DNA of 64,000 nucleotides from contig CAVQPQ010000003.1 in NCBI GenBank assembly GCA_963714695.1, positions 616,866 to 680,865 of the forward strand, given 5' to 3'. Source of the DNA: an uncultured Verrucomicrobiae bacterium. Lineage in GTDB: Bacteria > Verrucomicrobiota > Verrucomicrobiia > Limisphaerales > UBA11358. Within the stretch, counting starts at the first letter, position 1, and each line of letters opens with the position of its first letter. Below, in pieces: positions 1 through 32,007 of the stretch. The notes under the pieces are model-generated. The model saw nothing but the letters and a program-made list of their open reading frames with translations. It had not been told where the DNA came from and searched no databases. Made by a program: the position numbers and the translations under genes.

Positions 1-107
1 TTCCGGTTCGATTTGGGTTCGGCGGCGGCGGTTGTGCGGCCGACTGCGGGCTGCGGAGGATTTGTAATTCTACCATGACCGGAGGAAAGCACGAAAAATC
101 GATGGGT

Positions 108-128
108 GCTATGGGGTGTTACCCTACC
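108..128 (-). promoter_or_regulatory. Upstream motif copy 1 (GGTAGGGTAACACCCCATAGC on the minus strand)
   Basis: The plus strand reads gctatggggtgttaccctacc. It points leftward toward a possible edge-truncated minus-strand ORF with an ATG at 76. Confidence 0.5.
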
Positions 129-365
129 AGTGAACTTTACGAATCAATCCCGGCGTGGCGGCGACGCCCGTACCCGACCGGGAAATCAGTTGGAGTTCAC
201 ACTTCAGCGTGTCGGGCCGACGCGGAGGGAAACAAACTGAAGCTTGAACTCCAACCTACCCGGCTTGCGTTTCCAAACTGAAACCAAGGGTTTTCCCAGT
301 GGCGGCAAGGAACCCCCTAGTCGCGGCCAAACCTTACGCAGGGTAACAGTAATTATGAACATTAA
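108..365. repeat. 258-bp intergenic module, copy A (paralog of 4689-4946)
   Basis: It aligns colinearly with 4689-4946 at a constant offset of 4581, and most positions are identical. It contains a long hairpin (189-207 pairs with 237-255) and ends at an ATGAACATTA start. Confidence 0.85.
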
Positions 366-501
366 CCGGACACGAGGCAAAACCCTGGTTGGAGGCCGGA
401 GCGTAATTGCTCGCGGAACACAATCTCTCCCGGATTCACAGTTTTCATAACCGGACCTAAAACTCATTTTATCGTCAACCGCCGGAGAAATAATCAACAC
501 T

Positions 502-1590
502 TTGAATACTCCCAATCTTTTCTCTCCCGTTCGTCTGGGCGCGCTGGAAGCGCCCAATCGCATCGTGATGGCTCCGCTCACGCGGATGCGCGCGGGTCCG
601 GGCCGCGTGCCGACGCCGTTGATGGCGGAGTATTATGCCCAGCGGGCGACGGCGGGTTTGATCATCACAGAAGCCACGGCAATTTCCCAGCAAGGCACGG
701 GCTGCCCCAACTCGCCCGGAATCTACACCTACGAACAGATCGCCGGCTGGCAGCGGGTCACCGAGGCGGTGCATTGTGCCGGCGGCCGCATTTTTCTTCA
801 GCTCTGGCACATGGGCCGGATCTCTCATCCGAGCTTCCAACCGGACGGTGGATTGCCGGTCGCGCCCAGCGCCATTGCCCCGCGATCCGGCCAGGCGCTC
901 ACGGAGGACGGAAGGCAGCCTTATGTTACGCCGCGCGCTCTGAAGAAAGAAGAGTTGCCCGGGATTGTGGCGCAGTATGCCGCCGGGGCCAAACACGCCA
1001 AAATCGCCGGCTTCGACGGCGTGGAAATTCACAATGCCGACGGTTATCTGCTGGATCAGTTCCTCTGCGATGGCACGAACCATCGCACCGATTATTACGG
1101 CGGCCTCGTGCGGAACCGCGCCCGGCTCACACTGGAAGTAACCGTAGCCGTTGCCAAGGTATGGGGTGCCGACCGCGTGGGCCTCTGCTTCTCGCCGGGA
1201 GGTGTTTTCAACGACATGTACGATTCGAATCCGCTGGCGACGTTCAGTCATATGTTGCACGAGTTAAATCGCTTCAAACTTGCCTACGCGCACTTGATCA
1301 TGTCCACGGAAGGTGATTTTCGGCATGGCGCGGCGCCGATGTCGCTGGTGGCACTGCGGCACGAGTTTCAAGGGCCGTTGATTGTCGCCAGCGGCTTCAC
1401 TTGCGCGACGGCGACGCAGTGCTTGGAGGAGGGCTTGGCCGATGCCACAGCTTTTGGGCAATTGTTCATTGCGAATCCCGACTTGCCCGAACGTTTCCGG
1501 TTGAAGTCGCCGTTGAACCCGCCGGACGAAACGCCTTTTTATGGCGGAGTGGAAACGGGTTGTCCCGATTATCCGGCGACAGGAAGATGA
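502..1590 (+). CDS. Old Yellow Enzyme family NADH:flavin oxidoreductase (alkene / N-ethylmaleimide reductase-like)
   Basis: 362-aa ORF. The segments LFSPVRLGALEAPNRIVMAPLTRMRA, QLWHMGR and GFDGVEIHNADGYLLDQFL are typical of OYE TIM-barrel flavoenzymes. Confidence 0.9.
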   Translation: MNTPNLFSPVRLGALEAPNRIVMAPLTRMRAGPGRVPTPLMAEYYAQRATAGLIITEATAISQQGTGCPNSPGIYTYEQIAGWQRVTEAVHCAGGRIFLQLWHMGRISHPSFQPDGGLPVAPSAIAPRSGQALTEDGRQPYVTPRALKKEELPGIVAQYAAGAKHAKIAGFDGVEIHNADGYLLDQFLCDGTNHRTDYYGGLVRNRARLTLEVTVAVAKVWGADRVGLCFSPGGVFNDMYDSNPLATFSHMLHELNRFKLAYAHLIMSTEGDFRHGAAPMSLVALRHEFQGPLIVASGFTCATATQCLEEGLADATAFGQLFIANPDLPERFRLKSPLNPPDETPFYGGVETGCPDYPATGR

Positions 1591-1699
1591 AACCGGCTTC
1601 CATTACAAGGTGGCAGAAACCCATCCCTTTCTCATTCGAACCGACCGGTTCGAAATGCGGCCGCCGCGCGAAAGTTTTTTGATGCGTGGCGGAGACCAT

Positions 1700-1940
1700 G
1701 CAGATGTTGGATTTTGATTCGGGTGGACAGTCGTTTATCAACGGGTGGCTACTCTTTCCCCCCTGATCAGCGGCTGTCGCCCGAATCATAGCCAACGTAA
1801 TTTCTTCCCCGTGAACCCGGTCGAGGCGGCAAAGAGGTCGTCCAGAATCAGGAGTTGCGGCGACTGCAAGGAGTGTGCGGATGCGGGCGCCTTGCGTTGT
1901 TCGCCGTTGGACAGGGTGGCCAGCCGGCGGCGGTTGAAAA
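1700..1940 (-). pseudogene. ABC-transporter ATP-binding domain remnant (signature motif plus Walker B, frameshifted)
   Basis: Minus-strand translation gives LSNGEQRK...SPQLLILDD. It then continues in another frame as LDRVHGEEITLAMIRATAADQGGKSSHPL. There is no N-terminal Walker A region and no intact ORF. Confidence 0.35.
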
Positions 1941-2095
1941 CGGAAAGGAAAATGATGAAACTCAAAGCACCGTTTGGCCGGGAAACCCGCTTTGACCAGC
2001 CGATGTGAATTATAACCCGGACCCGGGGACAGCGGTCTCCGGTATCCGGAGCGGTTCGCCCAGCAGGCGTTGGGGCGCAATTCCAAAGCGGTGCA

Positions 2096-2524
2096 TCATG
2101 CCTGCTCGAAACACGCCGAAGTCACCGTGCCATCGCTGGATGATTGGGAGACTCCCGTTGACAATCTTGGCAATTCGTCGGCACATTTTTGTGACTCGAC
2201 CACAGGCAAATCATCCGCAGATAAATTGAAATTGAGCGAAGCAAACCAATGTTTTATCGGGTGTTCTTTGGCATAAACAATTCCGCATGGCGGGATCGGA
2301 AGTCCAATGAAGCGCCCAAGTTCAGCACAAATAAATTCGTTGGAAATGCAGTATTTTGACTTTTCATTATTTTTGGCCTTTGCCTTCAAAAGGCCATTAT
2401 AAGAGAGATGGTCGCCGTCATTGGCGTCTCTTGATTCAGCAATGGACACTATAGAAAAAAGTCCAGCCATAATGATTGACAGAGCTTTTATCATCGGAAA
2501 TGAAGCGTCAATCATGTTTTTCAT
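2096..2524 (-). CDS. Hypothetical protein in a locally AT-richer patch
   Basis: Internal ATG of the 2096-2665 ORF (MKNMIDASFPMIKAL...). Composition clearly differs from the flanks. No confident family assignment. Confidence 0.3.
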   Translation of the reverse strand: MKNMIDASFPMIKALSIIMAGLFSIVSIAESRDANDGDHLSYNGLLKAKAKNNEKSKYCISNEFICAELGRFIGLPIPPCGIVYAKEHPIKHWFASLNFNLSADDLPVVESQKCADELPRLSTGVSQSSSDGTVTSACFEQA

Positions 2525-2741
2525 GGAAAAACGGCATTTTCGGCCAGCGCGTTGCCAAGCCCTACCAAACCACAAAAAAGCGCAATCTGGCGCACCATGA
2601 CCTTTTATTGGCACTGCGGCACATAAGCTGCTATAGTATGGTTGAGTTGTGGTTGCAACAGGCAATCAGCGAACGATATGTAATCATAATAACCCGCCTG
2701 TTGCTTCGTTCACGCCGCAGCGAAAGAAAGAAGAGCAATAA

Positions 2742-3116
2742 ATGAAAAATACAAAAATCACCCGCAAGGCGGGCTTCACCTTGGTGGAAATCATGATTGT
2801 CGTGGCCATTATCGGCCTGTTGGCGGCAATCGCCATTCCCAACTTCGTGAAGGCTCGTGCCTCCTCGCAGGCCAATGCCTGCATCAACAACCTGCGTCAG
2901 ATTGACGGCGCCGCCCAGCAATGGGCGCTGGAAAGAGGCCAGTCCACCGGAGCTGCCATCAACTATCCCAACGACCTGACGCCTTACATCAAGCTGAACT
3001 CGGCCAGCAGCATTCCTCCGTGTCCGGCCGGCGGCACTTATACTGACCCCACCGTCGGTGGTACGCCGCAGTGCTCATTGGGCACCGGGATTACTCCGCA
3101 ACACGTATTGCCGTAA
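2742..3116 (+). CDS. Prepilin-type N-terminal cleavage/methylation domain protein (type IV pilin / pseudopilin-like)
   Basis: The N-terminus KAGFTLVEIMIVVAIIGLLAAIAIPNF matches the G-F-T-L-x-E class III signal followed by a hydrophobic helix. Confidence 0.85.
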   Translation: MKNTKITRKAGFTLVEIMIVVAIIGLLAAIAIPNFVKARASSQANACINNLRQIDGAAQQWALERGQSTGAAINYPNDLTPYIKLNSASSIPPCPAGGTYTDPTVGGTPQCSLGTGITPQHVLP

Positions 3117-3149
3117 TCAACAGCCGAGTTGGTTCATAGGCTCGAGGCG

Positions 3150-3168
3150 AAGGCTTCGGGCCTTTTTT
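3150..3168 (+). terminator. Possible rho-independent terminator after the pilin-like gene
   Basis: AAGGC-ttcgg-GCCTT stem-loop followed by a T run, 34 nt after the stop codon. The stem is short. Confidence 0.4.
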
Positions 3169-3504
3169 GCTCTCAGGCGTGCAATCTCGAAACTGATTAC
3201 CTATGTCACCGCGTCAATCAGTCTGTCGGTGGTGCGCCAGCCTGTTTGCGACGAGAACGGCGCCGGGTTCGGAGCCCCAACAGCGGAGAATCCAACGGCG
3301 CTTTGGTCGCACCATATAATTCTGCGGAGTGACGAAACTTGGCTGCCGAAATGGAGCGGCAAGCTGGGTGGAGTGGAGCGGTGTGCCGTTCGGTCGCGCG
3401 GGAGATGTCCTGGGGCAATCCGGGTTTTATCGCGCGCGCTGGCAATGGTCGGACAGACGAAGCCAATCAAGCCTGTTTGACCAGTGGAATCTTTCCGGAA
3501 GACT

Positions 3505-4083
3505 CTAGCCCGCAGCCAGTTTCCCCTGCGGAAGCAATCCGGCCTGCATGGCAAAACGCACCAGGCCCGGAACATCATGAATGTTCAGGCAGTTCATCAA
3601 CTTCATGCGATGGTATTCGACGGTCTTGGGGCTGACTTTCAGAATCACGCCGATCTGTTTGGTGTTCTGGCCTTCGGCGATGAGTTGGAGAATCTCGCGC
3701 TGACGCCCCGAAAGCTCATCGAGCGGGCTTTTCCGGTCAGCAATCGCTTGCAGGGGAATTTTTTTGAGGAACCGGGTGGAAATTTCCGGGTTCAGGTGAA
3801 TTTCTTTGTTGACCACACGTTGCAGGATCGTCTCGACCTGCTCCGTCCGCGTCTCGGCCTGCTCGGTTCGGATTTCGGCTTGTTCCGTCCGCGTCTTGGC
3901 CAATTCGGTCCGGGTTTCGGCCTGCTCCGTGCGTGTCTCCGCCGATTCTGCCCGGGTCTTGGCCTGCTCCGTGCGTGTTTCGGCCTGCTCCGTCCGGGCT
4001 TCGGCCTGCTCCGTCCGGGCCTCCGCCCGCTTGATTCGCGTCTGATCGCCGGTCACACCCGCATGTTGATCGTTTTTCCCCAT
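3505..4083 (-). CDS. LuxR/FixJ-type HTH regulator with an N-terminal TEQAE(A/T)R heptad-repeat region in place of a receiver domain
   Basis: The C-terminus LSGRQREILQLIAEGQNTKQIGVILKVSPKTVEYHRMKLMNCL is a LuxR-type HTH. Residues ~20-89 are ~10 consecutive 7-aa repeats. Confidence 0.8.
   Translation of the reverse strand: MGKNDQHAGVTGDQTRIKRAEARTEQAEARTEQAETRTEQAKTRAESAETRTEQAETRTELAKTRTEQAEIRTEQAETRTEQVETILQRVVNKEIHLNPEISTRFLKKIPLQAIADRKSPLDELSGRQREILQLIAEGQNTKQIGVILKVSPKTVEYHRMKLMNCLNIHDVPGLVRFAMQAGLLPQGKLAAG
3817..4030. repeat. 21-bp tandem repeat (~10 units) encoding the heptad array
   Basis: Plus-strand units resemble gtccgggcttcggcctgctcc and follow one another back to back. Confidence 0.85.
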
Positions 4084-4421
4084 TTTGCTGCATTACAAAT
4101 CGCGGTTTAAAGAAATGATTGTCTTGTCCTGCAAGCCGCCCGCCGGCGACTTGCCGGATGACAGCTTATGGAGAATGGCTTCGAATACTTTTAACTTCAC
4201 GGTTGATGTCAGTCCAAAGTTCGCCCAATCCGCAACCAACGCTCCGAAAGCGGGTTTGTTTCAGAGTTGGAAGGTTCATCGCCATTGACCACGAGAATGC
4301 GCTGGAACGGATTCGCCCGGTTTCGGGTTGACCTGATCGCTGTTTGTCGTTCCCAGTTTCAAAAGAAGTATTCACAACTTCGAGCGGGCATCAGGCGGTT
4401 AATGCGTTTGACGGTGACTGG

Positions 4422-4619
4422 CTACCCGATCCGCGGGACGCGGATGTCGCCCGAGTGATTGAGAATGCCAAAGGCAAACAACAGCCACACGATGACGCAA
4501 ATCACCACGACGGCGTTGAGAATTTTTTTAATCTTTCCGTCCATCGGGATATAGGTGTTGACCAGCCAGAGCAGCACGCCAATGACGATCAGAGTGACAG
4601 CGAGGGAAATCAGTGACAT
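4422..4619 (-). CDS. Small two-TM membrane protein (Thivi_2564-like family)
   Basis: 65 aa: MSLISLAVTLIVIGVLLWLVNTYIPMDGKIKKILNAVVVICVIVWLL. A GGAGG lies 7 nt upstream, and motif copy 2 lies 70 nt upstream. Confidence 0.7.
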   Translation of the reverse strand: MSLISLAVTLIVIGVLLWLVNTYIPMDGKIKKILNAVVVICVIVWLLFAFGILNHSGDIRVPRIG

Positions 4620-4688
4620 AGATTGCCTCCAATTTGGGTGAGTGTTTTATTATTCATGCTGAAAGCCTAAGCCGAAGAATGGGCGGGC

Positions 4689-4709
4689 GCTATGGGGTGT
4701 TACCCTACC
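4689..4709 (-). promoter_or_regulatory. Upstream motif copy 2
   Basis: gctatggggtgttaccctacc on the plus strand, 70 nt upstream of the minus-strand start at 4619. Confidence 0.6.
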
Positions 4710-4946
4710 AGTGGATTTTGCGAATTCAATCCCGGCGTGACCGCGACGCCCGCGTGCAACCGGAAAATCAGTTGGAGTTCACGCTTCAGCGTGCCGGCCG
4801 GCGAAAAGGGAAACAAGCTGAAGCTTGATCTCCAACCTCTCCGGCTCACGCTGCCAAACTGAGACCAAGGGTTTTCCCAGTGGCGGCAAGGAACACCCTA
4901 GTCGCAGCCAGACCTCGCAGAGGGTAACGGTAATTATGAACATTAT
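4689..4946. repeat. 258-bp intergenic module, copy B
   Basis: See copy A. The hairpin arms lie at 4770-4788 and 4818-4836. The module ends at the ATG (4936) of the FN3 gene. Confidence 0.85.
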
Positions 4947-5517
4947 TCACGAACGCGGAGCGCAACGCGCAAACAATATTTTGCGCCGGCTTTTCAAAAT
5001 TACCGGACTGACAAAACTTCTGGGAAGTTTCTTGATCCTCGCTGCTTTCAGCCCAACCGTTCAGGCCGGGCCAAGCGTCACTTTGGCCTGGAACCGAAGC
5101 ACGAACGCAATCGTTGCGGGTTACAACGTTTATTATGGTGGAGCCAGCGGCGACTATACCAATGAGATTTCCGCCGGCAATGCGACGAAGGCAACCATTT
5201 CCGGTCTGATTCCGGGAACCACCTACTATTTCGCGGCGACAGCGTACGCGTCTTCGGGTTTGGAAAGCGCTTTTTCAGGCGAAGTGTCGTACACCGTGCC
5301 AATCCTTCCCGGAGTGCAGCTCCGCATTACACCCACCCGGCAGTTCATTCTGACCGTGACCGGCCCGGTCGGCCACACGTATGACATCCAGGCGACGCAG
5401 GATTTCATCACCTGGACAGTCATCGGCACTGTGACGGTGGGAACCAACGGTACGTTGAATTTCACCGACACGAACGCGGCGGGTTTTTCAAAGCGCTTCT
5501 ATCGCACACAAGGATGA
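4936..5517 (+). CDS. Secreted fibronectin type III domain protein
   Basis: An internal ATG sits where the repeat module ends. The signal-like segment is LLGSFLILAAFSPTVQA. The FN3 signature is LAWNRSTNAIVAGYNVYYG...GTTYYFAATAY. Confidence 0.75.
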   Translation: MNIIHERGAQRANNILRRLFKITGLTKLLGSFLILAAFSPTVQAGPSVTLAWNRSTNAIVAGYNVYYGGASGDYTNEISAGNATKATISGLIPGTTYYFAATAYASSGLESAFSGEVSYTVPILPGVQLRITPTRQFILTVTGPVGHTYDIQATQDFITWTVIGTVTVGTNGTLNFTDTNAAGFSKRFYRTQG

Positions 5518-6102
5518 CACTGAAATGACCTCCGAGGCAGGGAACTATTGCTGCGATAGTGTGGCAAGATCGCGAAACCGCTCCGCCGTCTCTGGTCAAG
5601 AATTAACGGAAGTTAAAAATATGTCACTCTATCTCAGCCAAAGATGTTGGGGCCGATCATGCCTGCATCTGGCGTCGGCGGTGCGCGCCGGCCACTGGCG
5701 CTGGCATTTCGCCGGCATCGGACGGGAGATTCATTTCACGAGGATAACCCTGAACGGACCCACCACGGCGGGCGGCTGATTATAAAAACGCCGCCCGCCG
5801 GCGGTGGTATAAACAAAAACGAAAATGATGAAACTCAAAGTACAGTTTGGCCGGGAAAGCCGCTTTAATCAACCGATCCGGTGCATCATCCGACCCCGGG
5901 CGCAGTATTCGCCAGGCATCCGGGTTTTGTCACACGCGCTGGCAAACTGCACCCGAAGCGGGCGCCTTCCCTGTTTATTTCGGTTTTCGGGTTCAACATT
6001 GACCACCCAGCGTCCAGGATCGGCCAGCTTCGCCGTCAACCGGTGTTTGATATTGGCTGCCCAAAACCGGGCTGCCGTGTCGGGGCTGGATTCAGCAAGT
6101 CC

Positions 6103-16181: not shown

Positions 16182-17822
16182 TCATGCCTCGATGGGTTGT
16201 TTGGGGATGGAAAAGTAAAACGTCGCGCCGCCGTCCACCACGCCTTCCGCCCAGGTCCGGCCGCCGTGCCGGTGAATGATGCGCTGGACGTTCGCCAGGC
16301 CGATGCCCGTGCCCTCAAACTGGTCCTGGCTGTGCAGGCGTTGGAACACGCCGAACAGTTTCCCGGCATATTGCGGATCGAAACCCACGCCGTTGTCGCG
16401 GATGAAGAAAACCGGGGTGTTGGAGTCCTGGAGTTTTGGCGTATTGGAATTTTGGGTTGAAGCCACCGCTCCAGTACTGCACTTCTCCATTGCTCCAATC
16501 TCAATCTTTGCCCCGGCGCGGGCGCCCTCCGGGGCGTAGGCCTCTCCTGGCCGGAGGCCGGTGAACTTCACCGCATTGGAAATCAGATTGACCAGCGCCA
16601 TTCGCAGCAGGGCGCGGTCGGCCCGCACCGCCGGCAGCGGATGGATATTCCACGTGATATTCCGCCCTTTTGTCTCCGCCTTGAAATCGCCCAGGGTCTC
16701 CCGGACCAGTTCGTCGAGATGAATTTCCGTCTTGTGCAATGCCGCCCGCCCGACGCGCGAGAAATCCAGCAGGTCGTCAATCAAATCCCCCATCCGTTTG
16801 GCCGACTGGGAAATAATTGTCAGGTGCCGGAGACTTTCTTCTGAAAGCGCCGGCCCGGCGTCTTTTTGCAGCAGGTCCACGAAGCCCATGACATGGCGCA
16901 GCGGCGCGCGCAAATCGTGGGAGACGGAATAACTGAACGCCTCCAATTCCTCATTGGCGGCTTGCAGTTGCGCCGTGCGTTCGACAACCCGCCGCTCCAG
17001 TTCCGCATTAAGAACGCGGACTTGTCCCTCCGCCTGTTTGCGCTCCGTGATGTCACGCGCCACTTTCGATGCGCCGATGACTTTGCCGCTGGCATCCTTG
17101 ATCGGTGATGCCGTGACCGAGACATCAATCAGCCGTCCGTCCTTGGTTTGCCGCCGCGTCTCAAAGTGCTCCACACTTTCGCCGCGCTTGATCTTCTCCA
17201 GAATTTGATTTTCCTCATCGTGCCGGTCGGCGGGAATCAGCCGCAGGATGGAAGCCCCCAGCATCTCGCTGGCGGCATGGCCAAAAATCTTTTCCGCGCC
17301 TTTATTCCAACTGTTGATGATGCCTTTCAGGTCTTTGCCGATGATGGCGTCGTCCGAAAACTCGACGATGGCCGCCATCCGGATTGAAACGGTTTCCGCC
17401 AGCTTGCGCACCGTGATGTCACGAATGTTGCATTGAATTACTTTTTTGTTGCCGGCTTGATAGACGTTGCTGACAAACTCCACGGCAATCTTGCGGCCAT
17501 CCTTCGTTTCCAGCGGCAGGTCTTCATAGCGCACATACCTGTCCCGTTGGAGCCGCTCCAGCATGGCTTGATTGGACACAATGTCCTTGAACGGACTCAG
17601 CTCGCCGACGGTTTTGCCAACCATTTCACCGCGGGAAAATCCCAATAGCTTGACCAGGAAAGGGTTCACGTCGTTGATGCGCCCCGTGTCAACGTCCAAA
17701 ATCAGGATGCCATCCCTCGCCGCTTCAAACAGCCGGCGATAACTGAGTTCGGAGGCGCGGAGCGCCCGCTCCATTCGCGCCTCGTTACCGATTATGTTCT
17801 CGTTATGATGATCCTCCTTCAC
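16182..17822 (-). CDS. PAS/PAC sensor histidine kinase (2 PAS domains, HisKA, HATPase_c carrying an insertion)
   Basis: GTG start. PAS segments SYRRLFEAARDGILILD and AIVEFSDDAIIGKD. H-box SVSHDLRAPL. ATPase GTGIGLANV. Confidence 0.9.
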   Translation of the reverse strand: MKEDHHNENIIGNEARMERALRASELSYRRLFEAARDGILILDVDTGRINDVNPFLVKLLGFSRGEMVGKTVGELSPFKDIVSNQAMLERLQRDRYVRYEDLPLETKDGRKIAVEFVSNVYQAGNKKVIQCNIRDITVRKLAETVSIRMAAIVEFSDDAIIGKDLKGIINSWNKGAEKIFGHAASEMLGASILRLIPADRHDEENQILEKIKRGESVEHFETRRQTKDGRLIDVSVTASPIKDASGKVIGASKVARDITERKQAEGQVRVLNAELERRVVERTAQLQAANEELEAFSYSVSHDLRAPLRHVMGFVDLLQKDAGPALSEESLRHLTIISQSAKRMGDLIDDLLDFSRVGRAALHKTEIHLDELVRETLGDFKAETKGRNITWNIHPLPAVRADRALLRMALVNLISNAVKFTGLRPGEAYAPEGARAGAKIEIGAMEKCSTGAVASTQNSNTPKLQDSNTPVFFIRDNGVGFDPQYAGKLFGVFQRLHSQDQFEGTGIGLANVQRIIHRHGGRTWAEGVVDGGATFYFSIPKQPIEA

Positions 17823-17902
17823 AGTCCCGCTCCATCATGAGTTTTGGCTTACAAACTTTTTCGTGAGTTTCGGCCAGGATAATACGCCGGGAAGCTGGCG
17901 GG

Positions 17903-17927
17903 CGATATGGGGTGTTTACCCCATGCC
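17903..17927 (-). promoter_or_regulatory. Upstream motif copy 5 (palindromic form)
   Basis: cgatatggggtgtttaccccatgcc, 81 nt upstream of the start at 17822. Confidence 0.6.
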
Positions 17928-18094
17928 CAATTTGACGAATCCAGCCCCGGGTTCGATTACGAGAACGAGGACGACGACGAGGACGAAGACCCTGGACCGA
18001 TGCTCAACTGGACGCTCCCACCGTAGCGGCGCCCGGTGGGTTCTGGAAAACTCATGGTGTGGCTTGGTTGTATTTTGTTTTGTCAGGCCCGAAG

Positions 18095-18652
18095 TCATTC
18101 CGGCGGATGGTTTCCCGGCGCGCGTGCCCAGGCCGGTTGTTTCGCAAATGGGGCAATCAAGTTCCGGATGGAGTCAATGGGGTCATCAAGTTTCGGATAG
18201 AGCTTGTGGAAGCACTCGGGACAAATGCCGTGGGAGAAGGTGGCCTCGGAATGGCTCGCAATGTACGCCTCGACTTGCTTCCAATAACCCCGGTCATCCC
18301 GGATTTTTTTGCAGTTGGCACAAATCGGCAACAGGCCGCTCAACTGTTTCACCCGGGCCAGGGCCATTTGCAGTTCCGAGATCAAACGCTCCAGCTCGAT
18401 CTGATGGACTTCCAATTCGTGGACGTGCCGCGCCGTGTCGGCTGCGGATTGCGGAGTTTGTTGTTGCGCTTGGAGCCAATCTTCGGCGTGGCGGCGCAGT
18501 TCCCGCCCCGGGTTTATCGAAGGGTCGGCGTTGTTCGCGGGCCGGTCCGGTTTCTTTTTCATGGCTTGGCTTGTTTTTGTGGCGGCGGCCATCCTTGGCT
18601 GCCGTATCATCCGGCTTCCAGCCGGGTGTTTATGCAAGAGGCATTCTTTCAT
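18095..18652 (-). CDS. Coiled-coil protein with a C-terminal Cys-rich CxxC...H...CxxC module
   Basis: LLPICANCKKIRDDRGYWKQVEAYIASHSEATFSHGICPECFHKLY. An ATG at 18652 overlaps the kinase stop codon as ATGA. Alternative starts lie at 18658, 18610 and 18562. Confidence 0.6.
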   Translation of the reverse strand: MKECLLHKHPAGSRMIRQPRMAAATKTSQAMKKKPDRPANNADPSINPGRELRRHAEDWLQAQQQTPQSAADTARHVHELEVHQIELERLISELQMALARVKQLSGLLPICANCKKIRDDRGYWKQVEAYIASHSEATFSHGICPECFHKLYPKLDDPIDSIRNLIAPFAKQPAWARAPGNHPPE

Positions 18653-20598
18653 GCGCACCTCGTCTCTTCGTTTGCTGGTGTCCCGGGCGGCAGGATGCCG
18701 CCGGATACGGCAGGCAAGATGCCCGCCGCTACCGCCGCAGGCAAAGTGAACAGGAACTTCGCGCCCTGCCCGGGACCGTCGGATTCCACCCAGATTCGTC
18801 CCTCGTACAACTCCACGATGCGTTTGATCAGCGCCAGCCCCATGCCCATGCCTTCCGTCTTGGGGTTGAGCTTTTCAAACAAGCCGAACACCTTGTCATG
18901 GTAGCGCGGATCTATGCCCGCGCCGTTGTCGCGCACAAAAAACACCGTCTCCGCTCCACGCGGCTCGACGCCAATCTCGACGCGCGGCTTGGGCTGGTCC
19001 CCCACGAACTTGCAGGCGTTCTCCACCAGGTTCTGCCAGATTTCCACCAGACGCGGCCGGTCGCCTTCCAAAACCACGGCGGCATCAGCCACCTGCACCT
19101 CCGCGCTGCTGATGATGATGCGTCCGGCCACCAGCCCGACGGCCTCCCGCGCCAGTTCTTGGAAGGTGACCCGCGCGGGCGGATTGGACTGGCGGCCCAC
19201 GCGCACCAGATTCAGCAGTTCATCGAGCAACTGGCCCATTTTGTCCGCCGCGTTGTGCATGAAGATTAAATCCTGCTTGACCCGTTCCGTGTCCGGCCCG
19301 GCCATATCCTCCTCCAGATAGCCGAGAAAGGTCTTTATCGTCACCAACGGAATTTTCAGGTCATGGGATACGGTGTAGGTGAAGCGTTCCAGCTCGGTGT
19401 TCTTCTCCATCAACCCCCTTTCCTGGCGTTTGCGCTCCGTGATGTCGCGAAAAGTCCAGATCCTTCCGAAATCCTTTCCGGCCTTGTCCCGGACGGGCGA
19501 CGAGTAACGGTCCAGGACCGTTTCATCAATCAAATCAATTTCATCCCGGCTGACTTCGTCGGGATGGGAATAAAGATAGGCGATTTTCCCGGCAAACTCC
19601 CCGGGATTTTTCGCCCGGCTCGTGACAAATCGAACCTGCGCGGCATCATCCTGGTTCCCGGCAAGATGCGGGGGAATTTTCCACAGTTCGTCCAGGCGCT
19701 GGTTCCGGAGGATTTGCTTTCCCTGATTGTCCACCACCAAAATCCCGTCCAGCGCCGAGTCCACTTGCGCTTCCAGCAAAGCGGTTTTCCAGCGTAATTC
19801 TTCCTCCGCCCGTTTGCGCTCCGTGATGTCACGCGCCACTTTCGATACGCCGATGACTTTGCCGCTGGCATCCTTGATCGGTGATACCGTGACCGAGACA
19901 TCAATCAGCCGTCCGTCCTTGGTCTGCCGCACCGTCTCAAAGTGCTCCACATTTTCGCCGCGCCTGATCTTCTCCAGAATTTGATTTTCCTCATCGTGCC
20001 GGTCGGCGGGAATCAGCCGCAGGATGGAAGCCCCCACCATCTCGCTGGCGGCATGGCCGAAAATCTTTTCCGCGCCTTTATTCCAACTGTTGATGATGCC
20101 GTTCAGGTCTTTGCCGATGATGGCGTCGTCTGAAGATTCGATGATCTCAGCCAGCCGGATCGTCGTTTGCTCTGCCTCTTTGCGCACCGTGATGTCGCGG
20201 ATGTTGCATTGAATTACTTTTTTGTTGCCGGCTTGATAGACGTTGCTGACAAACTCCACGGCAATCTTGCGGCCATCCTTCGTTTCCAGCGGCAGGTCTT
20301 CATAGCGCACATACCTGTCCCGTTGGAGCCGCTCCAGCATGGCTTGATTGGACACAATGTCCTTGAACGGACTCAGCTCGCCGACGGTTTTGCCAACCAT
20401 TTCACCGCGGGAAAATCCCAATAGCTTGACCAGGAAAGGGTTCACGTCGTTGATGCGCCCCGTGTCAACGTCCAAAATCAGGATGCCATCCCTCGCCGCT
20501 TCAAACAGCCGGCGATAACTAAGTTCGGAGGCGCGGAGCGCCTGCTCCGTTCGCGCCTCGTTACCGATTATGTTCTCGTTATGATGATCCTCCTTCAC
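18649..20598 (-). CDS. PAS/PAC sensor histidine kinase (3 PAS domains, HisKA, HATPase_c)
   Basis: 649 aa. The first ~270 aa are nearly identical to those of 16182-17822. H-box TVSHDLKIPL. ATPase MGMGLALIK. Confidence 0.9.
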   Translation of the reverse strand: MKEDHHNENIIGNEARTEQALRASELSYRRLFEAARDGILILDVDTGRINDVNPFLVKLLGFSRGEMVGKTVGELSPFKDIVSNQAMLERLQRDRYVRYEDLPLETKDGRKIAVEFVSNVYQAGNKKVIQCNIRDITVRKEAEQTTIRLAEIIESSDDAIIGKDLNGIINSWNKGAEKIFGHAASEMVGASILRLIPADRHDEENQILEKIRRGENVEHFETVRQTKDGRLIDVSVTVSPIKDASGKVIGVSKVARDITERKRAEEELRWKTALLEAQVDSALDGILVVDNQGKQILRNQRLDELWKIPPHLAGNQDDAAQVRFVTSRAKNPGEFAGKIAYLYSHPDEVSRDEIDLIDETVLDRYSSPVRDKAGKDFGRIWTFRDITERKRQERGLMEKNTELERFTYTVSHDLKIPLVTIKTFLGYLEEDMAGPDTERVKQDLIFMHNAADKMGQLLDELLNLVRVGRQSNPPARVTFQELAREAVGLVAGRIIISSAEVQVADAAVVLEGDRPRLVEIWQNLVENACKFVGDQPKPRVEIGVEPRGAETVFFVRDNGAGIDPRYHDKVFGLFEKLNPKTEGMGMGLALIKRIVELYEGRIWVESDGPGQGAKFLFTLPAAVAAGILPAVSGGILPPGTPANEETRCA

Positions 20599-27183: not shown

Positions 27184-27204
27184 GGTAGGGTTACACCCCA
27201 TAGC
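27184..27204 (+). promoter_or_regulatory. Upstream motif copy 8
   Basis: ggtagggttacaccccatagc followed by gcccgcaag, as in copy 3. Confidence 0.6.
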
Positions 27205-27224
27205 GCCCGCAAGATGGTCAGGCA

Positions 27225-27407
27225 ATGCTCTGGGCCGTGGAAAATAAAACCTGGCTCACCGAAGTGGAAGTTGCGGCTTGCATTATGGCGGTGGCAATGA
27301 CCGCGTTCACTTTAATGGTTGCTCATGCCCTGTGGAAGAGCCTAGCCGGCGACAACGATAAGAACACTTTTGCCGTCAGGTTGGCGGCGAACCAAAACAA
27401 AAAATAA
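27225..27407 (+). CDS. Possible small membrane protein
   Basis: 60-aa ORF with one hydrophobic helix, 21 nt downstream of motif copy 8 and upstream of the CsbD-family gene. No homology support. Confidence 0.3.
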   Translation: MLWAVENKTWLTEVEVAACIMAVAMTAFTLMVAHALWKSLAGDNDKNTFAVRLAANQNKK

Positions 27408-27428
27408 CAAATCACGAACTATTATATT

Positions 27429-27635
27429 ATGACCACACTCGAAATCAAAGGCGACTGGAACATCACCAAGGGCAAGCTGAAACAAAAATGGGCCAAGCTT
27501 ACTGATAATGATCTCCGTTACACCGAAGGCCGGCAGGAAGAACTGGTTGGCCGGATTCAAAAGCTCACCGGCGAAACCCGTGAAGTGGTCGAAAACGCGA
27601 TCAAGGAATCTTGCTCCCCCTGTTGCTGCAAATAG
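27429..27635 (+). CDS. CsbD family general stress protein
   Basis: EIKGDWNITKGKLKQKWAKLTDNDLRYTEGRQEELVGRIQKLTGETRE matches the CsbD pattern. Confidence 0.85.
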   Translation: MTTLEIKGDWNITKGKLKQKWAKLTDNDLRYTEGRQEELVGRIQKLTGETREVVENAIKESCSPCCCK

Positions 27636-28070
27636 GCTGTCAATGCGCGGGCGGCAGGCAGGGCGGCGCCGCCGCGCCGGCGGGCATGATGGCGCCTGCG
27701 AACCACGCTTTGAAATCCAGCCGCTCATTGACTCCGGGCGGCTGGCGCATTTTTCGGGGAAAATTCTCATGCGTCGGAGCGCCAGTCGCCTCGTTTCTCC
27801 GGCCAACAACACGGCCTTCGCGCGGGCGTTCCGACCGGTGAAAATAAAACCAGGCTTTGATTTCCGGACAGCATCCGCTATAATTGTTTCATCGCTGGCA
27901 TTTGAAGTGGGGCAGCAGACACACCCGGATGATGGGCTGCCAGCGTCTCCAAGTTGCCCGTCGTCCCCTTCTGAGCGCCGCGGTGGCCGGCGTTTTGTCT
28001 GTCGCCACCTTCTTTTCCAAAACCATTCCCGTGCTTGTCGGCGATGCCGGCTTGGTGCTAACGTCTCGCC

Positions 28071-28259
28071 ATGCCGACGCTGGAACTCAAGCCAACGCAC
28101 AAAGTTGTCACCGCCTATTACGACAACTTGGCGAAATTCGCCAAACTCGGCATCAAGCACAAAACCGCCGTCCGCTCCGCGTTTCAGGAATTGCTGGAAC
28201 ACTGCGCCCGCCAGTTCGATTGGAAACTCGTTCCCGAATACGCCATCAAACGCAAAGGC
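28071..28259 (+). pseudogene. N-terminal remnant resembling the start of large restriction-modification methylase/helicase fusion proteins
   Basis: MPTLELKPTHKVVTAYYDNLAKFAKLGIKHKTAVRSAFQELLEHCARQFDWKLVPEY is recalled by eye from such enzymes. After ~63 aa the ORF runs into simple repeats. Confidence 0.35.
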
Positions 28260-28314
28260 CTGCAGGAATCGCCGACGCTGCGAGCAGCCCGGTCACCAGC
28301 CAGGAAACCGCCCA

Positions 28315-28374
28315 AATCAAACCGGATCAAACTGAATCAAACCAAATCAAACCAAATCAAACCGAATGAAAACA
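28315..28374. repeat. Six tandem 10-bp units (AATCAAACCN)
   Basis: aatcaaaccg gatcaaactg aatcaaacca aatcaaacca aatcaaaccg aatgaaaaca, with an exact 10-nt period. Confidence 0.9.
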
Positions 28375-28437
28375 CCGCCAGCCAGCCAGCGGGAAGGACA
28401 TGTGATCAGTCCCCGGCTGAACCGGGCCTCGAACCGT

Positions 28438-28459
28438 GGTAGGGTTACACCCCATAAGC
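28438..28459 (+). promoter_or_regulatory. Upstream motif copy 9
   Basis: ggtagggttacaccccataagc, 87 nt upstream of the dodecin start. Confidence 0.6.
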
Positions 28460-28545
28460 AAAGGATCGGCCCGGCCCGTAATTTGTGAACTGAAAAATTG
28501 AATGGCGGAATCCGTTAACGGCAACCAAACACAAAAAAACCGAAT

Positions 28546-28755
28546 ATGAAAGACCCGGTCTATAAACTCATCGAACTCACCGGCACCTCCACCACTTCCA
28601 TTGAAGATGCGGTGGACAAGGCCATCAAACGCGCGCACAAAACCATAAAGAACCTGCGGTGGTTCCAAGTGATCGAAACGCGCGGCAGCATCGAAAAAGG
28701 GAAGGTTCATCACTGGCAGGTGACCATCAAAATCGGCTTCACCGTGAATGAATGA
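28546..28755 (+). CDS. Dodecin family protein
   Basis: VYKLIELTGTSTTSIEDAVDKAIKRAHKTIKNLRWFQVIETRGSIEKGKVHHWQVTIKIGF parallels bacterial dodecins. Confidence 0.85.
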   Translation: MKDPVYKLIELTGTSTTSIEDAVDKAIKRAHKTIKNLRWFQVIETRGSIEKGKVHHWQVTIKIGFTVNE

Positions 28756-28792
28756 TCGGGCAGAAATGCGCGAAACCAAGTGAAGAACAATC

Positions 28793-28990
28793 ATGCCTCA
28801 AGGCGATAAATCCAGCTACACCGACAAACAGAAACGGCAGGCGGCACACATCGAAGCCGGCTACGGGAAAAAAGGTGTCAGCGTGAAAACCGCAGAAGCT
28901 CGCGCTTGGGCCACCGTGAACCAACTCACCGGCGGCGGAAAAAAGAGCGGCTCTGGCAGGAAGAATCACAAGATGATGCCAGTAGTATGA
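28793..28990 (+). CDS. Small basic conserved protein (stress-associated, unnamed family)
   Basis: MPQGDKSSYTDKQKRQAAHIEAGYGKKGVSVKTAEARAWATVNQ. Its stop overlaps the grpE start as ATGA. Confidence 0.55.
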   Translation: MPQGDKSSYTDKQKRQAAHIEAGYGKKGVSVKTAEARAWATVNQLTGGGKKSGSGRKNHKMMPVV

Positions 28991-29535
28991 ACCCTGAATT
29001 TCCCAATCCTCCGGCCACTGAACTGGAGCCAAACGCCACTCTGGTCGAGACCACGGCCACGGAGTCGGATGCGCTCCTGAAGGATCTCGCCGAACAAAAA
29101 GATTTGCATTTGCGCCTGGCCGCCGACTTTGAGAATTTCAAGCGGCGCAGCCGGCGGGAAAGCGAGACCCGCGCGGCCGCGCAAAAGGAATCTTTCATCG
29201 TTGAACTGTTGCCGGTCATTGACAACCTCGAACGGGCTTTGGCCTCCGGCGCATCGCGGGACTCCGCGCTGTTTCATCAAGGGGTGGATATGACGTTGCA
29301 ACAATTGCAACAATTGCTCCGCCAGCACGGCGTCGAGAGTGAGGAAATCGTTGGCCAGCCGTTCGACCCGCACCGGCATGAAGCGCTTTCGCGAGGCCAT
29401 GATCCGGCTCAACCCGACCACGCCATTCTCTCGGTGCTCCAGCGCGGCTATCATCGGGGTGAGAAGATGGTTCGACCGGCCAAAGTGGTGGTGAACGACC
29501 TGACGCCTTCCAAGCCCGCCCGCCATGCCCGTTGA
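28987..29535 (+). CDS. grpE: Nucleotide exchange factor GrpE
   Basis: [17 protein letters not shown]...[12 protein letters not shown]...FDPHRHEAL...[16 protein letters not shown]. Confidence 0.9.
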
Positions 29536-30043
29536 ATTTAAAGACTATTACCGGGTCCTCGGAGTGTCTCCGAAGGCATCGGACGAGGAAATCAAGAAGG
29601 CTTTCCGGACGCTTGCCCGGAAGTATCATCCCGATGTCGCCAAAGACAAAAAGATGGCGGAGGAAAAATTCAAGGAAGTCAACGAGGCCAATGAAGTCTT
29701 GAGCCATCCGGAGAGTCGCAGAAAATATGACCAGTTGGGCGCGAATTGGAAAACCGGCGCGGAATCGCGTCCCCAGCCGGACTGGGCTGGAGGCCGGTCC
29801 GCCGGTTGGGGAGGGCGGGTTCAAGAAGACGAATTCCAATTCGAGGGCACGGGTTTCAGTGATTTTTTTGAACAGTTTTTTGGCGGTCGCGCCGGCCGGT
29901 CTCGCGGCGGTTCGCCGTTTGAACACTTTGGCGCTGCGAACGGCAGCGATGAACCCGAGGCGGCGCTCCGAGGCCGGGATATTCAAGGGGACATTCTTAT
30001 CACTCTCGATGAAGTGGTTAAGCCCTCTAAACAGAGTGTGTGA
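29525..30043 (+). CDS. J-domain protein (CbpA/DnaJ-like) lacking the C-terminal substrate-binding domains
   Basis: [32 protein letters not shown] plus a G/F-rich region. It ends shortly after [16 protein letters not shown], where CTD I normally begins. Confidence 0.8.
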
Positions 30044-30143
30044 GGGCCGGAACAGTAAAGCTTCCTCGTTCGCCTGCGCCTTTTCGTTCCACAATTTAGC
30101 GCCAGCCGGATCAGTTTTTCCGGGAGCGTCTCCAATGAAGCAC

Positions 30144-30164
30144 GGTAGGGTTACACCCCATAGC
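30144..30164 (+). promoter_or_regulatory. Upstream motif copy 10
   Basis: ggtagggttacaccccatagc, 79 nt upstream of the start at 30243. Confidence 0.6.
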
Positions 30165-30242
30165 AAAAAACCGCCCGCCAGCGTAGTTTCGCCAAATTGG
30201 CAGGCACAACCGCAAACCAAACACGCAACGAAAATCATAATT

Positions 30243-30689
30243 ATGAATAATAAAACATGGGTCATCACCTTCCTTTCCATCGCCGCTTTTGCGGTCGGGT
30301 GCGACAAACAGCAAACCACTTCCCAGCAGATCGAGACGGTCAAAACCGAAACCAAACAAGCCGCGCAGGACATAAAGGATTACACCTTCGCGCAAAAGGA
30401 CGAATTTGTTAAAACCATGCAGGGTCAGTTGGACGCTCTTAACAAGGACTTGGACCAGATCTCCGCCAAAATCGAAAGCTCCAGCGACGCGGTCAAGGCT
30501 GAGGCCAAACCCAAACTCCAGGCATTGCGCGACCAAGCGGCCCAATTGAACAAACAACTGGCCGATGCCCAGAACGCCACCGAGTCCACTTGGGACAGCG
30601 TCAAAGCCGGCTGCTCGAAGGCTTACGATGCGACGAAGGACGGTTTCAACCAGGCCCGCCAGTGGGTGAGTGATAAAATCGCGCCTTGA
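30243..30689 (+). CDS. Helical lipoprotein (apolipoprotein / LEA-like composition)
   Basis: Lipobox FLSIAAFAVGC. The remainder is K/Q/A/D-rich and predicted helical. Confidence 0.65.
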   Translation: MNNKTWVITFLSIAAFAVGCDKQQTTSQQIETVKTETKQAAQDIKDYTFAQKDEFVKTMQGQLDALNKDLDQISAKIESSSDAVKAEAKPKLQALRDQAAQLNKQLADAQNATESTWDSVKAGCSKAYDATKDGFNQARQWVSDKIAP

Positions 30690-30760
30690 GGTGAGAGGGG
30701 AAACGTTGTGAATAAAACAGCAAGCCAAAAAACATAAACATCAAAAATGAAAGAAACGAT

Positions 30761-31111
30761 ATGAAAAAAACATCTGTAAACACGGGCCAACCCCTCAAGG
30801 TGTTGACGTTGATCCTCTGCCTCGGCGCGATGCCAGTGCTCCTGGGCGTGACCGGCTGTACCACCGGCAGCCGCTACGAGCAAAGCTCGGGTGAACGAAT
30901 TGACGACCATAACACTTCTTCCCGCGTCCGGGCCGCGCTGGCAGACGACTCGCAATACAAGTACGACGGCGTCAACGTGGAAACGTTCAAGGGTGTGGTT
31001 CAGTTGAGCGGCTTTGTCAACACGAGGGACCAGAAAAACCGGGCCGGGGATATTGCCAGGCAAGTCAGTGGCGTGCATGATGTCGAAAACAACATCACCG
31101 TCAAAGAGTGA
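30761..31111 (+). CDS. BON domain lipoprotein (OsmY-like)
   Basis: Lipobox LLGVTGC. BON segment VNVETFKGVVQLSGFVNTRDQKNRAGDIARQVSGVHDVENNITV. Confidence 0.85.
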   Translation: MKKTSVNTGQPLKVLTLILCLGAMPVLLGVTGCTTGSRYEQSSGERIDDHNTSSRVRAALADDSQYKYDGVNVETFKGVVQLSGFVNTRDQKNRAGDIARQVSGVHDVENNITVKE

Positions 31112-31256
31112 TCGAATCGAGAAAGTTGCATTCGCAACACGCCGACAGTGGAATCCCCGCTGTCGGCGCGTTGACAGCGGGTGGAAACTAAGCCGGAATG
31201 AACTGCCCGAGGAGGTTCGCCGGTTGCTCAATTGCGAGTTGGATTATAATGGTTTC

Positions 31257-31277
31257 GGTAGGGTAACACCCCATAGC
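31257..31277 (+). promoter_or_regulatory. Upstream motif copy 11
   Basis: ggtagggtaacaccccatagc, 74 nt upstream of the start at 31351. Confidence 0.6.
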
Positions 31278-31350
31278 GCACGCGCTGCTTCTTGATTTAG
31301 TGTCAGCCGGTCAGGCAACCAACCACGCCTGCCCCAAATAAAGGAATTAC

Positions 31351-31872
31351 ATGAAAACCAAACTCATTCTGCTCGCCATCCGCAGTTCTCTGGCGCTGGC
31401 CGCGCCCGCATTGCTGGCGCAAGATACCAACACCAACGGCACCAACATCCTCACCCAAACCTGGAAATACCAAAAAGCGTTTGAAAACGACCGGTCGTTG
31501 GGCGAACGATCCCTTCTTCCTCCCGGGCTTAAGGAAAAGTTGAAACTCACCGACGACCAGAGAACCGATCTGAAGCCAATCGAGGCTGACTTTGCCAAAA
31601 CCTGCGAGGAATACCAGACTGCCAACCAACCCCGGATTGACGCCGCCGAGGAGGCGAACCGGCAGGCGCGCGCAGCGAAAGACACGGCACAAATAGAGGC
31701 AGCGCGCAAACAGTTGCAACAGGTCTGGGCCGGTCTCCGCCCATACCGGGTGGCCGCCGTCAATCAAATCAGGCCTCTGCTGACGCCGGATCAACTCGCG
31801 ATTTTGGACGATCCGAAGAACCGGTGGCGCGAAAATCATGGTCAGGAAGCGAATGATCCGTCTGCGAATTGA
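31351..31872 (+). CDS. Periplasmic LTXXQ-motif protein (Spy/CpxP-like)
   Basis: Signal peptide plus LKLTDDQRTDLKPI and LLTPDQLAILDD motifs. Confidence 0.65.
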   Translation: MKTKLILLAIRSSLALAAPALLAQDTNTNGTNILTQTWKYQKAFENDRSLGERSLLPPGLKEKLKLTDDQRTDLKPIEADFAKTCEEYQTANQPRIDAAEEANRQARAAKDTAQIEAARKQLQQVWAGLRPYRVAAVNQIRPLLTPDQLAILDDPKNRWRENHGQEANDPSAN

Positions 31873-31986
31873 ATCATGACGGCGATGCCGGAAAAGAAGC
31901 CCTTGAAAAGTCTTCATTTGCCGGGAGATTCTGCAAACTGAGGTCGGGCTGAATCAGTCTTCGCCGAACCATTGCCCAAAATACAC

Positions 31987-32007
31987 GGTAGGGTTACACC
32001 CCATAGC
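31987..32007 (+). promoter_or_regulatory. Upstream motif copy 12
   Basis: ggtagggttacaccccatagc, 79 nt upstream of the start at 32086. Confidence 0.6.

Follow-up and report, generated by a model that had tools for sequence, protein, structure and literature searches.

Class II activator sites are exemplified by the lux box, which is bound by LuxR at -42.5, and by the sites of CRP and FNR at -41.5. Promoters are typically laid out as blocks separated by segments of variable sequence and fixed length; variable segments of an RNA usually alter their length or covary. Leaderless TANNNT promoters have been described for Actinobacteria and Deinococcus (PMC3160421, PMC3898074, PMC4007540), and a TANNNT hexamer about 12 nucleotides (nt) before the start codon is a signature of leaderless genes (PMC3160421). 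Putative mobile promoters and the propagation of promoters have been reported in prokaryotes (PMC3488235, PMC3575422). Here we compare with these systems a 258-bp intergenic module that occurs twice, as copy A (108-365) and copy B (4689-4946), in a 64,000-nt stretch of contig CAVQPQ010000003.1 from an uncultured Verrucomicrobiae bacterium (hereafter the window). A first-pass annotation had described the module as a structured regulatory or RNA element. We find that both copies are most likely regulatory DNA, made up of back-to-back promoters of a peat-bog Verrucomicrobia lineage, and not structured RNA.

We put the probability that each copy holds two divergent promoters giving leaderless or near-leaderless transcripts at roughly 0.6. 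The leftward promoter would use an upstream element, motif-1, at about -52 to -30 in place of a -35 box, followed after 21-23 nt by a TAnnnT -10 box, and transcription would start after another 6-7 nt, in many cases right at an ATG. The rightward promoter would consist of Block I (-71 to -53), Block II (-49 to -31), an 18-nt spacer and a non-canonical -10-like element, GTAAC/TAACGG (-12 to -6). Its predicted start lies at or next to the A of an ATG (355 in copy A, 4936 in copy B), which would give a leaderless mRNA.

We first consider the duplication itself. The two copies are 85.8% identical (224/261 columns in a strict global alignment), and MAFFT pairwise alignment places just two single-base indels of opposite sign, in agreement with the reported absence of net indels. 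A profile built from the pair recovers each copy with an nhmmer E value of ~1e-98. Identity falls to 56% in the 60 nt to the left and to 50% in the 60 nt to the right, so the borders originally given are right. A small GGCGT...ACGCC hairpin, a long inverted repeat, a 30-nt box (284-313 and 4865-4894, identical in the two copies, with 0 occurrences expected from shuffles) and the module-end sequence gtaattATGAACATTA are likewise present in both copies as described. The arms of the long repeat had been given as 19 nt; the inverted repeat exists, with pairing at 17/19 positions per copy rather than along the full arm, and in copy A the arms pair as 11 bp, an internal loop and 6 bp. A protein-coding module was rejected: the two indels interrupt the open reading frames (ORFs) that cross it, and the differences are mostly non-synonymous. 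Identity between the copies is distributed as follows (copy A coordinates).

Motif-1 segment: 100%
133 to 188: 77%
189 to 255, palindrome: 85%
256 to 283: 75%
284 to 324, Block I to Block II: 97.6%
325 to 342, spacer: 70%
343 to 364: 95.5%

The best conserved rightward part is a core of ~70 bp: Block I CCAAGGGTTTTCCCAGTGG, a 3-nt linker, Block II CAAGGAACACCCTAGTCGC, the 18-nt spacer, GTAAC, 7 nt and ATG. The features of the rightward side are listed below, with positions relative to the ATG in brackets; protein lengths are in amino acids (aa).

284 to 302, plus strand: copy A Block I, CCAAGGGTTTTCCCAGTGG (-71 to -53)
306 to 324, plus strand: copy A Block II, CAAGGAACCCCCTAGTCGC (-49 to -31)
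325 to 342, plus strand: copy A spacer, 18 nt, of low information content and without length change in the alignments
343 to 354, plus strand: copy A GTAAC (-12 to -8) and AGTAATT, the -10-like region
355 to 450, plus strand: copy A ATG at the predicted +1, then the 31-codon putative remnant ORF, in the ~145-nt leader of the OYE gene
502 to 1590, plus strand: OYE-type NADH:flavin oxidoreductase (Pfam Oxidored_FMN), predicted to be served by copy A
4865 to 4883, plus strand: copy B Block I
4887 to 4905, plus strand: copy B Block II, CAAGGAACACCCTAGTCGC
4924 to 4935, plus strand: copy B GTAAC and GGTAATT, the -10-like region
4936 to 5517, plus strand: 193-aa secreted FN3 protein (Pfam fn3, E = 3.3e-8), whose ATG is the predicted +1

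The first-pass annotation had proposed a search for further copies, and we performed two scans. An exact 22-mer from the box, run against species-representative genomes, gave 36 loci with 1-4 copies per genome; the pattern AGGGTTTTCCCAGTGG-N39-42-GTAAC, which leaves most of the core free, gave 109 stretches from the Joint Genome Institute (JGI) metagenomes. The combined set from genomes and peat metagenomes holds 146 core copies, with 104 unique cores. Because both scans need exact patterns, the sample is biased to close relatives and the apparent invariance is inflated. Homologous loci collected outside the window carry L-numbers (L003, L011 and so on). Nearly all core-bearing sequences are Verrucomicrobiota/Limisphaerales-type metagenome-assembled genomes (MAGs) or stretches, and they come from peat or bog. 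Four loci (L003, L007, L008 and L037) lie on contigs assigned to Solirubrobacteraceae, "uncultured bacterium", Limnocylindrales and Bifidobacterium, yet have a complete Verrucomicrobia-type core with FN3 or 56-aa genes; synteny with the window is seen in L003. This suggests mis-binned MAG contigs.

Block II is near-invariant in the 104 unique cores although it lies outside the second search pattern. The linker varies (CGG, CAG, CGC, CGA, TGG, TAA and others) and tolerates a 1-nt deletion. Copy A itself has AACCCCC at -44 to -38 in Block II, one mismatch from the family consensus AACACCC. An ATG stands at a constant distance from the core in 129/146 copies, all 129 of them ATG, and GTG takes the start-codon position in only 3 copies. 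None of 85 cores has a Shine-Dalgarno (SD) tetramer (AGGA, GGAG, GAGG) 4-10 nt upstream of the ATG; nearby leadered genes, by contrast, carry GGAGG. The hexamer at -11 to -6 is TAACGG, TAACGA or TAACAG in 79/85 cores, rather than a strict TAnnnT. Through an insertion of 2 nt at two loci (L011 and L025), GTAAC has become TATAAA or TATAAT, exactly 7 nt before a small-RNA-like unit described below. Similarity upstream of Block I fades at points that depend on the class of downstream unit and in L011 begins only 4 nt before Block I.

Block II significantly resembles reversed motif-1 (0.14% of shuffles score as well), and AACACCC falls at -44 to -38 from the ATG, within about one base, in motif-1 promoters as in the core consensus. 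Given this shared geometry, the block architecture, the fixed ATG without an SD motif and the independence from what lies downstream, we place the predicted rightward start at or next to 355 and 4936. Two other interpretations of the core were tried and rejected. The similarity of Blocks I and II as a 21-bp direct repeat is not significant, being matched in score by 27% of shuffles. Comparison by eye with consensus motifs of sigma factors, namely extracytoplasmic function factors (GGAAC-N16-CGT), sigma-54, sigma-28, sigma-B/F (GGGTAT) and sigma-32 (CCCCATnT), gave a misfit in spacing. A diverged core, CCAAGGTTTTCCCAGCGGCAGTTGGGAACACCCTGGTCGC...GGGTAACAGTAATTATGAAC, was met by chance at L097:4920-5010 (plus strand), and Blocks I and II do vary beyond the reach of exact patterns.

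On the leftward side, the module opens with motif-1, GCTATGGGGTGTTACCCTACC as scanned. It is not specific to the module: about 12 sites occur in the window (up to 2 mismatches in the 11-nt core). Gene calling based on G+C content at third codon positions (GC3) was ambiguous for the orientation of the motif, and we used Pfam matches instead. In the 27-33 kb region, Pfam-supported genes (GrpE, LTXXQ/Spy-like, BON-domain) lie on the plus strand and the motif-1 sites on the minus strand. Since the genes are opposite to motif-1 as scanned, we take the reverse complement, GGTAGGGTAACACCCCATAGCGC, as its functional reading, which places the gene downstream. The motif had been described as leftward-facing, and both these Pfam genes and the -10/ATG geometry downstream of the reverse complement bear out this orientation. 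A forward promoter on the scanned strand (TACG-N17-TATGGG) was discarded, as the actual genes are on the other strand.

TAnnnT follows CCCCAT at 20-25 nt in 38 of 49 motif-1 sites taken from the window and the genome loci, and in 18 this hexamer is followed 5-8 nt on by an ATG (6 nt in 16), against 0.28 in shuffles. At several of these ATGs an ORF begins that has a conserved N-terminus across loci. The motif-1 sites thus demonstrably show that the lineage uses a leaderless layout. A general scan for TAnnnT before first-ATG ORFs also peaked at 6-7 nt; it is confounded by in-frame stops and was not used as evidence. Some copies of motif-1 are palindromic variants, TATGGGGTG-AA-CACCCCATA, centred near -43.5, which suggests that a dimeric activator may bind there. 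The leftward features of the two copies are listed below.

74 to 76, minus strand: copy A ATG, predicted start (76), opening an 87-codon ORF cut off by the left edge of the window
83 to 88, minus strand: copy A -10-like hexamer TTTCCT, weak; orthologues have TTACCT or TACCTC, the position fits and the sequence is not TAnnnT
108 to 128, minus strand: copy A motif-1, read as GGTAGGGTAACACCCCATAGC, the putative upstream element at about -52 to -32
4422 to 4619, minus strand: Thivi_2564-family 65-aa membrane protein (NCBIfam NF041949, E = 3.3e-21) with its own GGAGG ribosome-binding site
4655 to 4657, minus strand: copy B ATG, predicted start (4657), with a 15-codon ORF and a 38-nt leader before the Thivi_2564 gene
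4664 to 4669, minus strand: copy B predicted -10 box TAGGCT, 6 nt from the ATG
4689 to 4709, minus strand: copy B motif-1

The leftward ATG of copy A lies 6 nt past the -10-like hexamer and 35 nt from motif-1, a layout it shares with 18 of the 49 motif-1 sites, and the N-terminus of its ORF is conserved in L003, L097, L109 and L115. In copy B, the Thivi_2564 gene is the first gene of the leftward unit, and the arrangement of ATG, short ORF and leader recurs in L003, L020 and L030.

Compared with described leaderless promoters, the motif-1 promoters in general are alike in their TAnnnT (weak in copy A), the 6-7 nt to the ATG and the lack of an SD motif, and the rightward core in its ATG at a fixed distance, again without an SD motif. 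The differences are the Verrucomicrobiota host, a long conserved element at -52 to -30 instead of a -35 hexamer, a rightward -10-like element that is TAACGG/GTAAC and not TAnnnT, and starts that are here predicted from sequence. We found no description of leaderless promoters, or of these motifs, in Verrucomicrobia in the open-access literature.

Motif-1 also marks other parts of the window. Five motif-1 promoters lie within 5 kb at 27188-32100 (at ~27202, 28456, 30162, 31275 and 32005, minus-strand coordinates), each upstream of a plus-strand gene, including GrpE (28906-29535), the LTXXQ/Spy-like gene (31351-31872) and the BON-domain gene (32086-32868). The set may form a stress or envelope regulon marked by motif-1. 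A separate copy of motif-1 (17906 and 20682) also accompanies each of two 2.8-kb paralogues at 17016-20470.

The units behind the core are diverse. The commonest is an FN3-type gene, and most genes behind the core code for secreted proteins built from a common N-terminal leader peptide (M-x-I/T-I/F-x-E/K...FKITGLTKFLGG...VQA), an FN3 domain and a C-terminal domain with the pattern ...QFILTVTG..GHTY.IQATQD...RFYR; the middle is variable and may hold, for example, DUF4082. The remaining classes are a basic protein of 56 aa, a protein of 98 aa, and units that are short or do not code for protein. In L022 the core is followed by a gene with a 21-nt leader, and in L011, L025 and L036 by an ORF-less unit that begins at the ATG position and consists of 10 free nt (GCGGUUCUCU), an 8-bp hairpin, a 14-bp hairpin and a U-run. 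The core would serve the secreted FN3 family and the 56-aa and 98-aa proteins, besides one gene with a leader and the small-RNA-like unit, and in copy A it would drive the OYE reductase through the ~145-nt leader. As it precedes leaderless ORFs, leadered genes and ORF-less units, the core is not tied to one start-codon geometry.

The ORF-less unit is a small-RNA candidate of ~75-85 nt directly behind the core (L011:2233-2320, L025:4386-4473 and L036:3443-3530; minus strand). Its free 5' end, GCGGUUCUCUCC, is C/U-rich, and its 14-bp hairpin is terminator-like; changes among the three copies are only wobble-compatible. No Rfam match was found for this unit at the three loci. We considered that it might be the signal recognition particle RNA, rejected this on the negative Rfam result and kept it as a generic small-RNA-like unit. 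A cobalamin riboswitch (RF00174, 74.7 bits) lies ~180 nt downstream of it at L025:4656-4824.

The genes to the right of the two copies had been called unrelated. This holds for the OYE and FN3 genes, which are non-homologous and yet preceded in the same genome by upstream regions with 86% identity over 258 bp; it does not hold for the 5' ends, as the 31-codon ORF and the FN3 gene share their first codons (MNI..R.RG). The OYE protein of the window has an identical copy encoded on a contig of GCA_049686535.1, and the order core, leader, OYE is kept in L003, L054, L068, L098, L115 and L131. With OYE orthologues 82-89% identical across these six loci, the arrangement is old. The frame of the 31-codon ORF is not conserved among them; together with its FN3-like first codons, this argues for a remnant or leader rather than a gene. 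Copy A may therefore represent promoter capture, in which an FN3 gene was cut to a few codons and OYE now stands in its place.

The proposal of a mobile promoter cassette, one of three options originally offered, fits best as regards the promoter, and "mobile" applies in a weak sense: the cassette has been copied along with a gene family and once landed before an unrelated gene (OYE). Most copies of the core stand before FN3 paralogues, so the promoter has spread largely as a passenger of gene-family duplication. We saw no transposase beside the modules, no association with insertion sequences and no target-site duplication. The module resembles putative mobile promoters in standing before non-homologous genes, OYE and FN3 in this genome and, at other loci, the 56-aa, 98-aa and small-RNA units. 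It differs from them in that most copies spread with a paralogous gene family and are old and orthologous across species, not recent insertions.

A candidate regulator is encoded between the two copies.

3505 to 4083, minus strand: GerE/LuxR-type helix-turn-helix protein (Pfam GerE, E = 4.8e-16) with a heptad-repeat N-terminal half

This gene lies downstream of, and on the same strand as, the Thivi_2564 gene, which the leftward promoter of copy B is predicted to serve. Homologues 70-92% identical are found convergent to and 0.5-2.5 kb downstream of the core in 25 of the 38 FN3-type cores with enough sequence. Within the gene, ~12 tandem 21-nt repeats (3809-4060) encode a TEQAE(A/T)R heptad array. 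The conserved elements resemble class II sites in being ~20 bp long, palindromic in some copies, centred near -41 to -44 and overlapping or replacing the -35 box, and in having a GerE/LuxR-family gene as a frequent neighbor. They differ in that Block II has no evident inverted repeat, a second block lies farther upstream and binding is putative, and the neighboring protein has a coiled-coil heptad N-terminus and no autoinducer or receiver domain. As a tentative extension, which we hold to be possible though doubtful, the core and motif-1 might be the recognition sites of an undescribed Limisphaerales activator/sigma system, in which the coiled-coil GerE-type protein would read GG.AACACCC..TAG.CGC at -47 to -30 and switch on a lineage-wide leaderless regulon (FN3, small basic proteins, OYE and the small RNA).

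Several observations weigh against our main reading of two divergent leaderless promoters. The rightward TAACGG/GTAACG element is without the final T of TAnnnT, lies 5 nt and not 6-7 nt from the ATG, and fits none of the sigma-factor consensus motifs compared. A TACGCT or CACGCT hexamer 19-24 nt upstream of Block I is a possible -10 box, and if it were used, the core would be transcribed within a ~78-nt leader. Near-invariance over ~40 nt exceeds what is usual in protein-binding sites, although the exact-match search patterns force part of it. An SD-like tetramer lies 11-16 nt upstream of the ATG in 30/85 cores. The start positions are all predicted from geometry, the GerE/LuxR-type protein is a candidate activator by association, and none of 7 cores of the 56-aa class has a homologue of it nearby.

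Some of these observations belong to an alternative that we consider unlikely. It holds that the core is transcribed from a promoter farther upstream, for example the TACGCT hexamer, and acts as a 5' leader, either an RNA to which a protein or small RNA binds or a novel riboswitch-like element poor in helices, or else as a DNA operator downstream of the start, controlling the following ATG. In its favor are the extreme conservation of ~40 nt of primary sequence across many species, the constant distance between core and ATG, the purine-rich tract in those 30/85 cores and an A..T-containing hexamer upstream in most copies. Upstream genes always end at least 140 nt from the core; this non-coding stretch leaves room for a promoter and thus does not exclude one. 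The palindrome-driven minus-strand fold of copy B (z = -5.0) may also be counted for it. However, the upstream hexamer is lost in L011, L025, L036, L014 and L033, similarity there begins 4-15 nt before Block I, and the same core stands before ORF-less units and leadered genes.

The RNA evidence also argues against a leader. We found no Rfam 15 match at the gathering score across the whole window, and none within the module at E <= 10 over 1-5400. Plus-strand folds of the two copies are ordinary (z = -1.7 and -1.8). RNAalifold on 38 and on 104 sequences proposed differing small hairpins with 0 compensatory pairs in either alignment, and a G+C-rich middle repeat, CCCGGCGCG...CGCGCCGGG, homologous to the small inverted repeat at 152-168, likewise gave 0 in 16 palindrome-less modules. 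The best hairpin, GCGGC-A-AGG...CCU-A-GUCGC, has no pair changed on both sides among 104 sequences and equals shuffled controls on all measures; its middle pair (28-46) is unpaired in 17/100 sequences. Linker positions vary or drop a base once freed from the search pattern, and their supposed partners stay fixed. Many alignment columns are invariant, some by the search pattern, and are uninformative on pairing; variation, where present, ignores pairing. Column pairs with high mutual information were rejected as structure, since they mirror gene-class phylogeny (coding columns too) and cross each other.

With neither covariation nor a known family behind it, the proposed cis-regulatory leader RNA is not supported, and of the first-pass description of a regulatory or RNA module rather than a gene, the regulatory part stands and the RNA part gains no support. 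Like riboswitches and leader RNAs, the core is a conserved non-coding element directly upstream of a start codon that recurs before a set of genes; unlike them, it has candidate helices that are invariant or broken. A new protein- or ligand-binding leader RNA working by primary sequence and not by helices is less likely than the undescribed activator/sigma system considered above.

We judge it improbable that the duplication is an incidental by-product of copying an FN3 gene with its upstream region, or of gene conversion, with functionless blocks and a palindrome that is a decaying MITE-like insertion (miniature inverted-repeat transposable element). Most copies do precede FN3 paralogues sharing their first ~40 codons and C-terminal domain, the lineage-specific palindrome common to copies A and B suggests recent exchange, and two further repeats lie downstream of both units. 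Against this, conservation is block-wise: in this one pair, Blocks I-II are 97.6% identical and their surroundings 70-77%. Across many genomes, ~100 unique copies keep the blocks near-invariant and differ in the spacer, the linker and the beginning of the coding sequence. Non-homologous units are found behind the core as well (56-aa, 98-aa, the L022 gene, OYE and the small-RNA-like unit). Block-wise conservation before such units points to purifying selection on the blocks.

The inverted repeats of the module lie in its variable middle.

152 to 168, unstranded: copy A small inverted repeat GGCGT...ACGCC, inside a larger CCCGG...CCGGG repeat, between the predicted starts
189 to 255, unstranded: copy A 67-bp imperfect palindrome, 17/19 arm positions pairing
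4734 to 4750, unstranded: copy B small inverted repeat GGCGT...ACGCC
4770 to 4836, unstranded: copy B 67-bp imperfect palindrome

The 67-bp palindrome is a lineage-specific insertion or expansion that is decaying. It is present in 6 of ~146 modules (window A and B, L003, L097, L109 and L115), always at the same site, and its arm sequence was found in this one site type only (the same six and L001). An unrelated small hairpin takes the place of the inner arm in L097, L109 and L115, and none of the three substitutions observed in the outer 11-bp stem is compensated. Dispersal of the kind known from MITEs or repetitive extragenic palindromic (REP) elements was not seen, and no target-site duplication could be read at the borders of the palindrome. 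That the module encodes a discrete small RNA on either strand, centered on this hairpin, as the first-pass annotation had also offered, is hardly credible: the repeat folds stably on the minus strand (z = -2.6 in copy A, -5.0 in copy B) and a minus-strand terminator-like site overlaps it in copy B, but the hairpin is missing in most members, its changes are uncompensated, the plus strand has no terminator within 108-365 or 4689-4946, and the module, lying between two outward-facing promoters, is without a promoter-plus-terminator pair of its own.

Further repeats accompany the core-driven units. A second repeat, 87% identical between 1938-2004 and 5811-5877, lies downstream of both units and has 38 unique copies among the fetched loci; it begins with an A-run, a GCCGGC..GCCGGC hairpin and GGAAAGGAAAATGATGAAACTCAAAG, and may hold a small ORF (MMKLK.QFGRE.RFDQP). 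Adjoining the OYE gene at its 3' end is a conserved element of ~180 nt (1583-1760), which was found in 22 sequences in all, without an Rfam match, and also directly behind the core in a class of loci encoding "MNIFHERRT" (L026, L052, L083, L103, L109, L127 and others). Elsewhere in the window, four tandem paralogous units of ~2.4 kb occupy 35769-45273, with segments 66-100% identical.

The module belongs to a kind already known, that of lineage-specific promoter and regulon motifs, and is no new kind of biology. If our reading is true, one false candidate comes off the list of structured RNAs, and two promoter/regulon motifs become available for the Limisphaerales, an uncultured group abundant in peat soil for whose transcription signals we found no description. 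The pairing of copy A with OYE would be a clean natural case of promoter reuse before an unrelated gene. The motifs would help correct the start-codon annotation of leaderless genes and aid the reading of peat metatranscriptomes. They would also predict co-regulated sets in this lineage: the secreted FN3 family together with the small RNA, and the GrpE, Spy-like and BON-domain proteins as a set of stress type.

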